Counted from the first letter of the stretch, positions 59,507 to 64,000 are shown. The stretch is DNA of 64,000 nt from Candidatus Omnitrophota bacterium (GCA_050250375.1 JBFWOS010000002.1:205547-269546); one strand, 5' to 3'. Program-made: numbers and translations. The notes: generated from the letters alone by a model not told the origin.

Positions 59507-61747
59507 ATGGACAATACACAGACCCGACCAAAAATCATCGCGATCATGTCCGTTATTTTCCTCTGGGGGATGTTGATTTACGCCAACTCGGTCAACGGCC
59601 GTTTCCAGTTTGACGATTATCCCGTGATCGTCCATAATCCTGTAATCCGGACAACCCATTTAGGTGAACTGTGGAATTCGGTGCGGCATCCGACGCGGTT
59701 TCTCGCCTACGTGACCTTCGCCCTGAATTACCGGCTGAACGGCCTGGACCCGGCGGGTTATCACATCGTCAATATCCTGATCCATCTCATCAACGCGGTC
59801 CTGGTTTTCCAGCTGATCCGACTGATCTTTCAAACACCCTGGATCAAGAAAAACTGGAAGAACCAAAACGGCACAACCATCGCGGCAGTCTGCGCGTTGT
59901 TGTTTGTCAGCCATCCGGTCCAGACCGAAAGCGTGACATACATCACCCAGCGGTTCACCTCGCTGGCGGTGTTTTTTTATCTGGCTTCTTTATGTTTTTT
60001 TCTTGCCGGCCGGTTAAAGGCAGGATTGAATAAAAACAAGGCGTTCCTGTTTTTTGTCCTGAGCGGCGTGTGCGCGGCAGGAGGGATGCTGACCAAACAG
60101 ATCACACTCACCCTGCCGCTGATGATTTTATTATCAGAGTGGATGTTCTTTGAGCGCTCCTCCAAACAGACGTGGCTGCGGCTGACCGTCCCGGCCGTAT
60201 TATTTTTTCTGCTGATCCCGGGGATGTACCTGTTTGATGCCGCGGGTATATTGTCGATCACCCATGATTCGGGTTCACACCGGGGTGATCTGATCACGAG
60301 CCAATCGTACGCCCTGACCCAGCCGCGCGTGGTCATGACGTATCTGCGCTTACTAGTTTTTCCGGTCAACCAGAACCTGCTCTATGATTTTCGGATTTCT
60401 GAACGTCTGTCCGACGCGAAGACCTTATTGAGTCTCGTTTCGATTGTGTTTTTATTTCTGGGAGGATTGCGGTTATACAAAGTCAACCGTTTGTATTCGT
60501 TCGGGATCTTCTGGTTCCTGATTACCCTGATGGTTGAATCAACAGTCATTCCGATCCGGCATGTGATCTTTGAACACAGGGTTTATCTACCGTCTGTCGG
60601 ATTTTTTCTGGCAGCCGCCGTGCTGTTATTCCGGTTAACCGAAAAGAGAAACGTATTTGTTCCGGCGGGCGTAATTATTGTTTTGATCTTTTCTGTCCTG
60701 ACGGTCAAACGCAACCTGGTCTGGAAAGACGGGGTGACGATGTGGCAGGACGTTGTCCGCAAATCACCGGGGCAGGCGCGGCCGTATTACAATCTGGGAT
60801 ACGAATATTTAAAGAGCCGTGACCTGGATCCGGCCCTGCAGAATTTCTCAAAGGCGCTGGAAATCAACCCGGAATATTTCGACGCCTACAACAACCGCAG
60901 CCAGGTTTACTTTGATCTTGGCAAACTGGACAAGGCCTTTGAAGATATCAGCCGGGCCATCCGCCTTAACGATCAACGGGCAGAGGCCTACCTGAACCGC
61001 GGGATGATCATCCGGCAGATGGGGCAATATGAACCGGCCATTCAGGATTTCAGCCGGGCGATCAGTCTCGACCCGCAAAATTATATTTATTACACCAACC
61101 GCGGGATGGCCTACGGCAATACCGGGCAATATGGTCTGGCCTTAAATGATTTGAACAAGGCGCTGGAATTGAACCCGGAATACGCCCGGGCGTATAATAT
61201 CCGCGGGGCGGTTCACCTGTCGTTAGCGAAGCGGACAGAAGCCCTGGAAGATTTTAATAGGGCGGTCCGTTTCGGCGTCAACGATCCGGATGTGTACCGC
61301 AACCGCGCCCGTTTGCTGCAGGACAGCGGCGAGTACGATCTGGCGAGCCGGGATCTGAATAAAGTGATTGAACTGAGGCCCGATGATCTTGATTCGTATT
61401 TAAACCGGGCCTATCTTTTAACCAAAGTGAATAAACTGGACGAGGCCTTAAACGATTATAACCGGATCCTCGCGAAAGATCCGTCCCAGTCGCAGATTTA
61501 TATGGAAAAGGGGAAGATCTATTACCGTCTCCAGCAGTACCGCCGGGCCGCGGATGAATTCGACCACGCGTTAAAACAGTCCCCGGACAACGCGTCGGGT
61601 TATTTGCTGAAGGGACTGTGCCATTATGAACTCAAACAATACCAGCAGGCGTTGTCGGATGTCAACCGGGCGAAAGAGCTCGGACATCCGGTCGATGAGA
61701 ATTATTTAATCCGTATCAGGAACGCCATGGGCCGTCCTTCATCATGA
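59507..61747 (+). CDS. DUF1736/TMTC-like membrane protein with long C-terminal TPR array (paralogue 3)
   Basis: RFQFDDYPV, GYHIVNILIHLINAVLVF, HPVQTESVTYITQRFTSLAVFFYL; about 9 TPRs. Confidence 0.7.
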   Translation: MDNTQTRPKIIAIMSVIFLWGMLIYANSVNGRFQFDDYPVIVHNPVIRTTHLGELWNSVRHPTRFLAYVTFALNYRLNGLDPAGYHIVNILIHLINAVLVFQLIRLIFQTPWIKKNWKNQNGTTIAAVCALLFVSHPVQTESVTYITQRFTSLAVFFYLASLCFFLAGRLKAGLNKNKAFLFFVLSGVCAAGGMLTKQITLTLPLMILLSEWMFFERSSKQTWLRLTVPAVLFFLLIPGMYLFDAAGILSITHDSGSHRGDLITSQSYALTQPRVVMTYLRLLVFPVNQNLLYDFRISERLSDAKTLLSLVSIVFLFLGGLRLYKVNRLYSFGIFWFLITLMVESTVIPIRHVIFEHRVYLPSVGFFLAAAVLLFRLTEKRNVFVPAGVIIVLIFSVLTVKRNLVWKDGVTMWQDVVRKSPGQARPYYNLGYEYLKSRDLDPALQNFSKALEINPEYFDAYNNRSQVYFDLGKLDKAFEDISRAIRLNDQRAEAYLNRGMIIRQMGQYEPAIQDFSRAISLDPQNYIYYTNRGMAYGNTGQYGLALNDLNKALELNPEYARAYNIRGAVHLSLAKRTEALEDFNRAVRFGVNDPDVYRNRARLLQDSGEYDLASRDLNKVIELRPDDLDSYLNRAYLLTKVNKLDEALNDYNRILAKDPSQSQIYMEKGKIYYRLQQYRRAADEFDHALKQSPDNASGYLLKGLCHYELKQYQQALSDVNRAKELGHPVDENYLIRIRNAMGRPSS

Positions 61748-63690
61748 ATTTCATTGATAAATACAGACATATCCTTTCGTTGTTGATTGTGCTGGTCCTG
61801 GGAGGACTGATTTACACCAATTCCCTGAACGGCCCGCCGATGTTTGATGATATCGGGTATATCAGCGGCAATGACAAGATCCGGGACATCCGGGATATCC
61901 GCTCGATCTGGAAGGCGTGGAAACATCCATCGCGGTTCGTCGGTTATTTGACCTTCGCGCTGAATTATCATGTCCACAAGATGGACGTGTTCGGGTATCA
62001 TCTGGTCAATGTGCTGATCCATCTGACGAACACCCTGATGGTCTGGCTGCTGGTCGGGCTGATGTTTCAAACGCCCCGGTTAAGAGATGACCCGCTGTTG
62101 AAACAGCGGCATCTGATCGCGTGGATAACGGCCCTGCTGTTTGCCGTCCACCCGATGCAGACGCAGGCCGTTTCGTACATGGCACAGCGGTTTGCCTCGC
62201 TGGCGACGCTGTTTTATCTGACGGGGGTTTATTTTTACGTCCGTGGGCGGATGTCCTCCCAAAAAAGTTTCTTGTTTTTTTTCATCGCGGGATTAAGCGC
62301 CTTGCTGGGCATGTTTACCAAACAGATCACGATAACCTTGCCGGTCACCGCCTTATTATTTGACGTCTTGCTGATCCGCAAAAGAGAAGATCCGGTCCGG
62401 ATCAACCGTAAAGTTGCCGGCGGACTTTTTCTTTTTTTGTTAATTGTCCCGTCCATATTTTCATTCAACGTCATCGGGATTTTGTCGATCCGGCATTCTT
62501 CGGGTTCAAACGAAGGGGATACCCTGACAAATATCTCGTATTTGCTGACGCAGTTCCGGGTGATCTGCACATACCTTAAATTGATGTTTTTTCCGATCGG
62601 GCAGAATCTGCTTTATGAATTTTCCGCGTCGTATTCCATTTTTGAGACCAGGACGTTCTGGTGTTTTCTGGGTTTGCTGGGCATTTTTTTCAGCGGGGTC
62701 CGGTGCCTGCGGACGAACATCCTGATGGCCCTGGGGATATTCTGGTTTTTTATAACCCTGTCGGTTGAGTCCTCGATCATTGTCATCAAACATGTCATCT
62801 TTGAACACCGGATGTACCTGCCGTCGTTCGGTTTTTTTCTGTTTTGCGCGGCGGCCCTGGCCGGGATGTTCCGGTCGCCTAAAAAATGCGTTGTTACGGT
62901 CTGTGTGATCGGCCTGACATTGTCTTATCTGACGTATAAGAGAAATGCCGTCTGGTCGGATGATATCGCGATGTGGGAGGATGTCATTCAGAAATCCCCG
63001 GGAGAGTCCCGAGGTTATATGAACCTCGGTAATGCGTACATGGAACGGGCAGAGTGGGAAACGGCGCTGAAATTTTTGACCCAGGCCATTGAATGCAATC
63101 CGAGAAATTACGCGGCCTACAGCAACCGGGGCATGGCTTTTTTTGCCAGCGGCCATCCGCACAAAGCGATCGGGGATTTTAACCAGGCCCTGGACGTGAA
63201 AGATGATTATGCCGAGGCGTATATCAACCGGGGGAATTATTACAGTTATATCAAGGACTACAAAAAGGCGATCGCGGATTATGACAAAGCGATCAGTTTA
63301 AATCCGGCTTCAGAGGAGGCTGTGTTGAACCGCGGGAACAAATATTTCCGGCTGAAGGACTTCGACGCCGCCCTGGCGGATTACACGCGGTCCGTGGAAT
63401 TAAGCCCGAATTTTGTCCAGGGGTACACCAGCCGCGCCGAAGTGTACACGTATCTCAAACAGTTTGATCTGGCCCTGGACGATTACAACCGGGCGCTCGT
63501 TCTGGATGACCGTGATCCGGCCGCGTTCTACGGACGGGGAAATGTTTACTTTAAAATGGGTGATTTACATTTGGCCCTGGATGACTATAATAAAGTTTTG
63601 GAAATCAGCCCGCAGCACAAAAAAGCCAGGGTTCAGAAAGAGAAATTGATTTATTTTCTCAACAAGAAAAAAACCGGCCCGGTCCGGTAA
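61744..63690 (+). CDS. DUF1736/TMTC-like membrane protein with C-terminal TPR array (paralogue 4)
   Basis: PPMFDDIGY, GYHLVNVLIHLTNTLMVW, HPMQTQAVSYMAQRFASLATLFYL; TPRs; 4-nt overlap with paralogue 3. Confidence 0.7.
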   Translation: MNFIDKYRHILSLLIVLVLGGLIYTNSLNGPPMFDDIGYISGNDKIRDIRDIRSIWKAWKHPSRFVGYLTFALNYHVHKMDVFGYHLVNVLIHLTNTLMVWLLVGLMFQTPRLRDDPLLKQRHLIAWITALLFAVHPMQTQAVSYMAQRFASLATLFYLTGVYFYVRGRMSSQKSFLFFFIAGLSALLGMFTKQITITLPVTALLFDVLLIRKREDPVRINRKVAGGLFLFLLIVPSIFSFNVIGILSIRHSSGSNEGDTLTNISYLLTQFRVICTYLKLMFFPIGQNLLYEFSASYSIFETRTFWCFLGLLGIFFSGVRCLRTNILMALGIFWFFITLSVESSIIVIKHVIFEHRMYLPSFGFFLFCAAALAGMFRSPKKCVVTVCVIGLTLSYLTYKRNAVWSDDIAMWEDVIQKSPGESRGYMNLGNAYMERAEWETALKFLTQAIECNPRNYAAYSNRGMAFFASGHPHKAIGDFNQALDVKDDYAEAYINRGNYYSYIKDYKKAIADYDKAISLNPASEEAVLNRGNKYFRLKDFDAALADYTRSVELSPNFVQGYTSRAEVYTYLKQFDLALDDYNRALVLDDRDPAAFYGRGNVYFKMGDLHLALDDYNKVLEISPQHKKARVQKEKLIYFLNKKKTGPVR

Positions 63691-63704: not shown

Positions 63705-64000
63705 ATGAAACCCGAACACCGAAAATATATTCTCCAGCATCTTGATACACAGTCAGCCAAAGAGATCGCCGCCCGTCTGAATATAAAAGAACGCACGGTC
63801 CAGCGCCTGATCGATCATCAGCAGGATAAAGCGAGCGGGACACAGCAGAAAATCCAGCAGGAAGAAAAGAAAAAAAACAGCATCAAATGGCGGCTGGTGT
63901 TTATCATGATGATGTGCGGGTTCCTCGTTTATTCCAACAGCCTGAAAGGGGAATTTATCTGGGACGATAATATCCTGATCCGCAATAACACCGATATCCG
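63705..64000 (+). CDS. DUF1736/TMTC-like membrane protein, paralogue 5 (3'-truncated by window edge) with N-terminal HTH-like extension
   Basis: MKPEHRKYILQHLDTQSAKEIAARLNIKERTVQRLIDH (sigma-70 region-4-like HTH) then TM helix and EFIWDDNILIRNN loop motif; runs off the window. Confidence 0.55.
   Translation, partial: MKPEHRKYILQHLDTQSAKEIAARLNIKERTVQRLIDHQQDKASGTQQKIQQEEKKKNSIKWRLVFIMMMCGFLVYSNSLKGEFIWDDNILIRNNTDI

Follow-up and report, generated by a model that had tools for sequence, protein, structure and literature searches.

Tandem arrays of TMTC-related GT-C membrane proteins with tetratricopeptide repeats in a Candidatus Omnitrophota genome: putative periplasmic protein O-glycosyltransferases

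Animal TMTC proteins are a recently recognised class of protein O-mannosyltransferases, whose catalytic mechanism and substrate selection have been modelled, not solved. TMTC1-4, enzymes of the endoplasmic reticulum belonging to the GT-C/PMT clan, O-mannosylate cadherins (PMC7801869). In this work we analysed a stretch of 64,000 nucleotides (nt) from a Candidatus Omnitrophota bacterium (GCA_050250375.1, JBFWOS010000002.1:205547-269546; hereafter, the window), which carries two arrays of genes encoding TMTC-like membrane proteins with tetratricopeptide repeats (TPRs). The five family genes are named P1 to P5 in window order, with P1 and P2 forming the first array and P3, P4, and P5 the second one. 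Among other described systems, the D-arabinofuranosyl transferase TfpW, which glycosylates the pilin of Pseudomonas aeruginosa, a secreted protein, from a polyprenyl-phosphate sugar, is similar by its description, being an inner-membrane GT-C enzyme with a DDx motif, 11 predicted transmembrane (TM) helices and a large periplasmic TPR domain (10.1101/2020.04.19.049825). Enzymes of the ArnT/PMT/PMT_2 type (GT83, GT39) share the GT-C fold class, but ArnT and PMT are without a TPR array and the acceptor of ArnT is lipid A. TMEM260 (DUF2723) represents another GT-C family, which O-mannosylates specific protein domains (PMC10214176).

All five genes lie on the plus strand and their products are homologous to one another, each having TPRs behind an N-terminal domain that crosses the membrane several times and contains an FxxDD motif. 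Within the first array, P1 (43485-45182) encodes 565 amino acids (aa) with four TPRs, and P2 (45179-47146) encodes 655 aa with six. In the second array, P3 (59507-61747) is an open reading frame (ORF) of 746 aa, whose TMTC-like GT-C membrane domain (residues 1 to about 420) precedes the TPRs, and P4 (61744-63690) is an ORF of 648 aa of the same family, with six TPRs. P5 starts with the ATG at 63705, and the first 98 of its 717 residues are inside the window (63705-64000); this part comprises a helix-turn-helix (HTH) region of about 40 aa, a K/E-rich linker, the first TM helix (TM1) and the beginning of the DD loop, and the remainder of the GT-C domain and about seven TPRs lie beyond the window end (full-length gene, L001:14160-16313). 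A first-pass annotation, made from the sequence alone, had described the second array as three tandem TMTC-like paralogues translationally coupled by ATGA overlaps. P3 and P4 are indeed complete ORFs and P5 is their homologue, but most of the latter lies outside the window and it represents a different subfamily. Likewise, the ATGA overlap was found between the P3 stop and the P4 start (and also at the P1/P2 junction), but not between P4 and P5, where a 14-nt spacer separates the P4 stop codon (63688-63690) from the P5 start. The observation is therefore real, though imprecise in detail.

For the comparison with the animal enzymes, the published alignment of TMTC1-4 N-domains was used, with 12 human, zebrafish, and fly sequences (PMC7801869, supplementary file 2). 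A hidden Markov model (HMM) of the bacterial membrane domain scored 104-138 bits on all 12 of them, and alignment of the family profile with the TMTC profile (hhalign) gave a probability of 100, an E-value of 1.7e-41 and 375 aligned columns at 24% identity, covering the two domains from one end to the other (positions 11-402 of the one profile against 5-432 of the other). In the reverse direction, the TMTC HMM recognised P5 (149 bits), P2 (90 bits), P3 (86 bits), P4 (84 bits), and P1 (55 bits), and gave no match to the PMT_2 gene that follows P5. The earlier label "TMTC-like" is thus borne out as homology extending over the full length of the membrane domain; by these profile comparisons P1-P5 are true homologues of eukaryotic TMTC1-4, and P5 is the most TMTC-like of the five. 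As the 30-sequence family profile, which matches TMTC, found no PDB chain at E<=10, including those of ArnT, PMT, and STT3, the link is specific to TMTC. PDB searches with a single sequence returned nothing relevant, and Pfam and NCBIfam searches with the full proteins yielded TPR families only, being uninformative on the membrane domain. TMTC_DUF1736 (PF08409) matched neither P5 nor P2 (the latter searched as the full protein) at E<=0.01, and the only contact with the PMT_2 family (PF13231) was that of P5, at 26.1 bits with a cut-off of 26.1; P1-P4 had no PMT_2 or PMT match. The failure of Pfam on P1-P5 is due to the divergence of the loop-4 segment (Pfam DUF1736), which is the least conserved part of the domain, too divergent for PF08409, and at which the TMTC HMM alignment breaks for P3 and P4. 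Many TMEM260/DUF2723 members carry C-terminal TPRs too; P1-P5 had no Pfam match to DUF2723.

Structure prediction points in the same direction. The full-length P3 model returned mainly TPR proteins (OGT, SPY, and APC) in Foldseek, and a model of the N-domain only (residues 1-421; pLDDT 90.3, pTM 0.92, AlphaFold) was used instead. Its nine top PDB matches were all GT-C proteins, i.e., ArnT (5f15/5ezm), PglB, yeast and human STT3, EmbB, and DPY19, and the membrane domain, as modelled, has the GT-C fold.

Motifs were compared using the TMTC definitions of PMC7801869. The bacterial proteins keep them in the TMTC order (DD, HPxxT(E/Q), K-(Q/E)-x-x-x-T, Y-(D/E)-F, and E-H-x-x-Y-L-P-S-x-G), which corresponds in TMTC1-4 to the DD pair of loop 1, HPxHTE, K-E/Q-x-x-x-T of loop 3, an acidic-aromatic pair of loop 4 and E-x-x-x-Y-x-P-S-x-G of loop 5. 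The DD pair (M1) is present in P1-P5 and invariant across 43 family members (D36/D37 in P3). M2 (SHKSYRP) has the form HSSYRP in P5, and in P1-P4 it reads H-P-S/T-R-F, where the SHKSY part is shortened and the Arg (R64) is the only invariant residue. The HPxHTE motif is HPxQT(E/Q) in P1-P4 and HPVHTE in P5, M3 (RxD) is QRF(A/T)S in the former (Arg kept, Asp lost) and GRAD in the latter, and M4 (KE(T/Q)xxT) is K-Q-I-x-x-T and R-E-N-A-L-M, respectively. M5 (DW) is replaced by Y-D/E-F in P1-P4 and M-E-Y in P5, M6 (PxxP of TM9) is absent from P1-P4 with one Pro kept in P5, and M7 (ERxxY) is E-H-(R/H)-x-Y in P1-P4 and E-H-W-L-Y in P5. An Arg stands one residue after this E-H in P1, P3, and P4 only, and the following Y-x-P-S-x-G is conserved in all five proteins. 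Residues D36, D37, R64, K197, T202, E356, and Y360 of P3 are invariant in the family; apart from the DD pair, about 35 further membrane-domain positions do not vary across 30-43 sequences of 35-50% identity, and the invariant positions map to the periplasmic loops which, in the TMTC models, bind the donor and the metal (PMC7801869).

Eleven hydrophobic TM helices were predicted, and a twelfth helix (residues 265-284) is amphipathic, with a mean hydropathy of 0.41, and corresponds to the loop-4 juxtamembrane helix. The conserved motifs are all located on alternate "out" loops, and the short loops between them are K/R-rich and "in". As the number of TM helices is odd, the charge pattern is positive-inside and the HTH of P5 must be cytoplasmic, we predict that the DD loop and the TPR array are on the periplasmic face. 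The arrangement resembles that of TMTC1-4, in which a TPR array likewise comes after 11 TM helices and lies on the non-cytoplasmic side, and which also occur as several paralogues per genome. Unlike TMTC1-4, P1-P5 are bacterial and predicted to face the periplasm, they would use a bacterial polyprenyl-phosphate sugar as the donor in place of dolichyl-phosphate-mannose, the TPR number is 4-9, and P5 has an N-terminal HTH not found in TMTCs.

The sequences of the copies leave little doubt about their age. In BLASTP comparisons P3 and P4 are 40.7% identical over 622 aa, P1 and P2 40.0%, and the remaining pairs among P1-P4 37.5-40.9%. P5 shows 24.8-25.7% identity to each of P1-P4 (E-values from 1e-38 to 5e-55) and, judged by this value of about 25%, is a member of a different subfamily; the PMT_2 gene behind it has no significant similarity to P1-P5. 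In an alignment of 43 sequences, closer orthologues from other genomes were found for P3 (84% identity), P4 (73% and 61%), and P1 (72%), and P2 had no close orthologue (best match 46%). As synonymous sites among the paralogues are saturated at 40% protein identity, the ratio of nonsynonymous to synonymous substitution rates (dN/dS) was calculated for orthologue pairs, with the relative SRR23004073 as a reference (dS 0.5-0.8). For P3, P4, and P5 it was 0.10-0.17 in the GT-C parts and 0.09-0.14 in the TPR parts. The PMT_2 gene had a value of 0.13, and the methyltransferase gene located behind it one of 0.17. The low identity, the possession of own orthologues and the low dN/dS indicate that the copies are old, intact, and each under purifying selection. 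Tandem genes of similar size on the same strand might be suspected of being a recent duplication or an assembly artefact, and the first-pass annotation, which had argued against a recent simple duplication, named near-identical paralogues as the finding that would speak for it. This explanation is ruled out by identities of only 37-41% among P1-P4 and 25% to P5, by the separate orthologues (72-84% identical) of P1, P3, and P4, and by synteny. P3-P5 occur in the same order in three independent assemblies, i.e., Logan SRR27751815, NCBI GCA_050181705.1, and the relative SRR23004073, as well as in a relative with P1 and P5 orthologues that are 70-72% identical. The window is identical with Logan contig SRR27751815_15468 over 14,455 bases, and contig JBFXCX010000001.1 of GCA_050181705.1 (1.0 Mb, a Candidatus Omnitrophota metagenome-assembled genome (MAG)) has the same gene order and an identical P5 protein.

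The divergence is greatest in the repeat arrays. An AlphaFold model of P3 (pLDDT 92.6) contains nine helix hairpins over residues 424-724 and a capping helix, and an HMM built from these nine TPR units detected nine units in P3, six in P4, six in P2, and four in P1; about seven were read by eye in the full sequence of P5, and they are not visible in the window because only 98 P5 residues lie there. The number of 8-10 TPRs given earlier for each protein of the second array therefore fits P3 only. In the 43-sequence alignment, the TPR regions of P1-P4 are 22-33% identical to one another, as compared with 39-44% for the membrane domains, whereas between orthologues the TPR regions are 81-90% identical. 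Arrays which differ between paralogues and are conserved between orthologues fit paralogue-specific TPR roles, without proving them, and agree with the diversification of substrate specificity proposed in the first pass.

Taking these results together, we propose, with a probability of about 0.6, that P1-P5 act in the periplasm as protein O-glycosyltransferases which depend on polyprenyl-phosphate sugars and choose their acceptors by means of the TPR arrays. In this proposal, they would be inner-membrane GT-C enzymes with 11 TM helices, with the conserved loops, the catalytic Asp-Asp loop among them, in the periplasm, followed by a periplasmic TPR superhelix. By analogy to TMTC, PMT, ArnT, and TfpW, the membrane domain would take the sugar from a polyprenyl-phosphate-sugar donor and pass it to Ser/Thr residues of secreted or envelope proteins, and the paralogue-specific TPR array would select and present the acceptor, with a different acceptor set for each paralogue. 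The unit composed of P3, P4, P5, a PMT_2-type GT-C enzyme without TPRs and a methyltransferase could add and modify more than one sugar.

Several observations weigh against this proposal. The Foldseek matches to GT-C proteins are marginal (E-values from 7.8e-3 to 0.15, TM-scores 0.36-0.48, ArnT being the best), and the isolated N-domains of P1, P3, and P4 had no Pfam match even at E<=10, including TMTC_DUF1736 and PMT_2. The SHKSY part of M2 is deleted in P1-P4 and the strictly conserved Arg of M7 is changed to His in P1-P5 (the P3 site is at 60572-60586); both changes imply that the sugar or donor specificity probably differs from that of TMTC, and E-H in place of the phosphate-binding E-R of ERxxY may mark a different donor. 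Moreover, no donor-synthesis gene (a GT2 polyprenyl-phosphate glycosyltransferase or a flippase) was found in the window and the 8 kb that follow it, the acceptors are so far candidates only, and the literature searched for bacterial TMTC homologues, DUF1736, and Omnitrophota glycosyltransferases gave no description of this bacterial family. As concerns TfpW, its gene is single-copy, outside any array, and follows pilA directly, whereas neither the window nor the 8 kb behind it contains a pilin gene, the upstream neighbours being DCC1-like and DUF3313 genes for P3 and an integrase-like gene for P1.

The main alternative is that P1-P5 are active GT-C transferases, but with an envelope glycan or lipid as the acceptor (lipid A, an exopolysaccharide or a wall polymer, cf. 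ArnT, EmbC, and AftD), the TPR arrays docking the enzyme to an export or assembly machine, e.g., to the 1067-aa barrel-like TPR protein encoded nearby. Among the nearest solved folds are those of ArnT and EmbB, whose acceptors are lipids or glycans, motif M2 and the Arg of ERxxY depart from TMTC, the gene of the 1067-aa secreted protein (TPR, pilN-like region, barrel-like middle part) has been kept between the arrays, and a second ArnT/PMT_2-like GT-C gene and a methyltransferase gene belong to the P3-P5 unit. We nevertheless regard this as rather unlikely, since the homology is specific to TMTC and none is detectable to ArnT, Emb or STT3, both characterised enzymes that combine GT-C with TPRs (TMTC and TfpW) modify proteins, and many paralogues with differing but individually conserved TPR arrays are easier to explain by a multitude of protein acceptors than by a single polymer. 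The neighbourhood also lacks genes for the synthesis or export of polysaccharides (Wzx/Wzy, an ABC transporter or a GT2/GT4 cluster). It is far less probable still that these proteins are non-catalytic membrane TPR scaffolds or chaperones which keep only the GT-C shape. TPR domains alone do serve as adaptors in many systems, and the enzymatic activity of the bacterial members is deduced from sequence and analogy, but the invariance of the DD pair and of about 35 further positions of the membrane domain, on the periplasmic donor and metal loops, and the purifying selection acting on the GT-C domains (dN/dS 0.10-0.17) are hard to reconcile with a mere scaffold.

The array's most unusual feature is the conserved HTH of the P5 subfamily. 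Residues 1-42 of P5 (63705-63830) match Pfam HTH_23 (E 8.7e-6) and Sigma70_r4_2 (E 7.8e-5) and are joined to TM1 by the K/E-rich linker. The N-terminal pattern MKPEhrKYIL..S..IA..L.lKER.VrrFL is kept in all 15 inspected P5-subfamily homologues with full query coverage (about 36-70% identity; Omnitrophota wherever the source is named), and the three inspected homologues with about 86-89% coverage are without it. An HTH on the cytoplasmic end of a glycosyltransferase predicted to face the periplasm suggests a membrane-tethered regulator. A more far-reaching scheme, which we consider doubtful and offer as speculation, would make the arrays a bacterial multi-enzyme protein O-glycosylation system, the prokaryotic counterpart of TMTC and possibly its source lineage, in which each TPR paralogue would serve a different secreted beta-sandwich protein and the HTH-bearing P5 subfamily, acting as a one-component regulator tethered to the membrane, would link transcription to glycosylation in the periplasm or to the load of acceptors.

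The copy number, which the first-pass annotation had singled out for comparison among related genomes, is stable within the clade. In the closest relative, SRR23004073 (about 85% protein identity), whose contig shows only the second array, the order P3-P4-P5-GT-C-methyltransferase is identical, and the more distant Omnitrophota relative GCA_018062515.1 keeps both arrays (2+3), with P1 and P5 orthologues that are 72% and 70% identical, respectively. The latter region comprises an integrase-like gene, P1 (562 aa), P2 (652 aa), and a response regulator gene, then genes of three unknown secreted proteins and a 1065-aa protein, and then the DCC1-like gene, P3 (746 aa), P4 (646 aa), P5 (716 aa), the GT-C gene (506 aa), and the methyltransferase gene. 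The same syntenic region (L084/L086) is without the genes of an S26 signal peptidase, a glutaredoxin-like protein, an M50 peptidase, a HigB-like toxin/HTH antitoxin pair and a DUF3313 lipoprotein, which in the window occupy 48261-50387 and 57711-59103 and thus represent insertion or deletion differences between the arrays. These are the genes of the "secretion and redox" block in which the first pass saw a functional neighbourhood, and this view did not hold. When 15 flanking proteins were compared by tblastn with 79 family loci (up to 10 kb of flank), no recurrent partner emerged. The M50 peptidase (weak, 33% identity) and the integrase-like gene had one match each, and the response regulator had three; the PMT_2, methyltransferase, and DCC1-like genes were found near none of the family members in these 79 other loci. 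The secretion and redox genes are variable filler; conserved association with the arrays is limited to the DCC1-like gene and the unknown secreted proteins, and it does not reach beyond close relatives.

The gene unit containing the second array is longer than the part visible in the window. Behind P5, two genes kept in two relatives follow beyond the window end (L001:16310-18501, equal to L082:12151-14342), namely a TPR-less GT-C gene of 509 aa, which overlaps P5 by ATGA and is a clear PMT_2/PMT member (PMT_2 68.6 bits, PMT 41 bits), and a Methyltransf_23 gene of 220 aa, which overlaps the former by TGATG and encodes an N-terminal CxxC...CxxC motif. A non-coding stretch of 1.1 kb is located 3' of the methyltransferase gene. 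On the other side, a gene of a DCC1-like thiol-disulfide oxidoreductase (59084-59500, plus strand; PF04134, E 1.8e-25) ends 6 nt before P3. Its position directly 5' of P3 is kept in both relatives, and it is therefore probably the first gene of the unit. Judged by gene spacing, the tightly packed unit would be (DCC1-like)-P3-P4-P5-GT-C-methyltransferase, probably starting at the DCC1-like gene, and the window holds only part of it.

Between the arrays, two secreted proteins that are conserved in relatives are encoded on the plus strand (52724-56861) and may be acceptors or partners of P1-P5. One is a 265-aa protein (52724-53521) with fn3_5/WxLIP-like character. The other, of 1067 aa (53658-56861), combines a signal peptide and one TPR with a T2SS/T3SS pilN-like region, a long central part of outer-membrane-barrel-like sequence character and C-terminal SdrD_B domains, and it may be either a partner or an acceptor. 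Further secreted proteins are encoded between the arrays at 50507-51925 and 52045-52671.

A few further elements of the locus deserve mention. A tyrosine-recombinase-like gene (42529-43458; Phage_integrase, E 2.3e-11) is located 26 nt 5' of P1, occurs in the same place in GCA_018062515.1 (L086:9055-9978), and has a similarly placed match of 33% identity in L071; it looks like a resident partner, not the integrase of a mobile element. Elsewhere in the window, positions 22229-30712 encode a 2827-aa protein with SpvB, TcdB_toxin_midN, FG-GAP, RHS repeats, and fn3, an architecture of the Tc/RHS toxin type. In the 1.1-kb gap behind the methyltransferase gene (L082:14393-15242, about 4-5 kb past the window end), seven copies of a 32-nt palindromic repeat, CTCTCCAAAATTGTTTCACAATTTTGGAGGAC, are found, mostly about 68-69 nt apart. 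They are nested in larger units, with two identical 235-nt copies and a third that is 66% identical. The gap also holds a tRNA-Ser(GGA) gene on the opposite strand (15013-15103 in L082).

The family extends far beyond this locus. A word-indexed search gave 2,793 relatives among 8,000 scored candidates, mostly from Omnitrophota and named "tetratricopeptide repeat protein", and an exhaustive profile search gave 104,757 representatives at 50% identity with E<=1e-3, including 29,246 with E<=1e-30. Among the GTDB species representatives, relatives are encoded at no fewer than 585 loci, which are distributed among Omnitrophota, Nitrospirota, Desulfobacterota (including the isolate Geomonas paludis), Bacteroidota, and Latescibacterota. 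For the 79 GTDB loci, the counts were one copy in 61 loci, two in 8, three in 8, four in 2, five in 2, and ten in one. The largest array among them, in the Omnitrophota MAG OFTM38 (JAJDCA010000018.1; overlapping stretches L003:2-21245 and L005:1-12133), has at least 11 consecutive same-strand copies in about 24 kb. Tandem arrays are thus regular in the family, and the 2+3 arrangement in the window is a modest, ordinary example of them.

P1-P5 are therefore ordinary members of a huge, under-annotated bacterial family, interesting but not exceptional in themselves. True homologues of TMTC form a very large family in bacteria, above all in Omnitrophota, with about 105,000 representatives at 50% identity. 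Its members are labelled in databases only by their repeats, because no Pfam model recognises the membrane domain. Their small size, the high-confidence structure prediction and the arrays of paralogues with differing TPRs make them possible tractable models for the choice of acceptors by TPRs, and the family marks an unexplored capacity for protein glycosylation in the uncultured phylum Omnitrophota.

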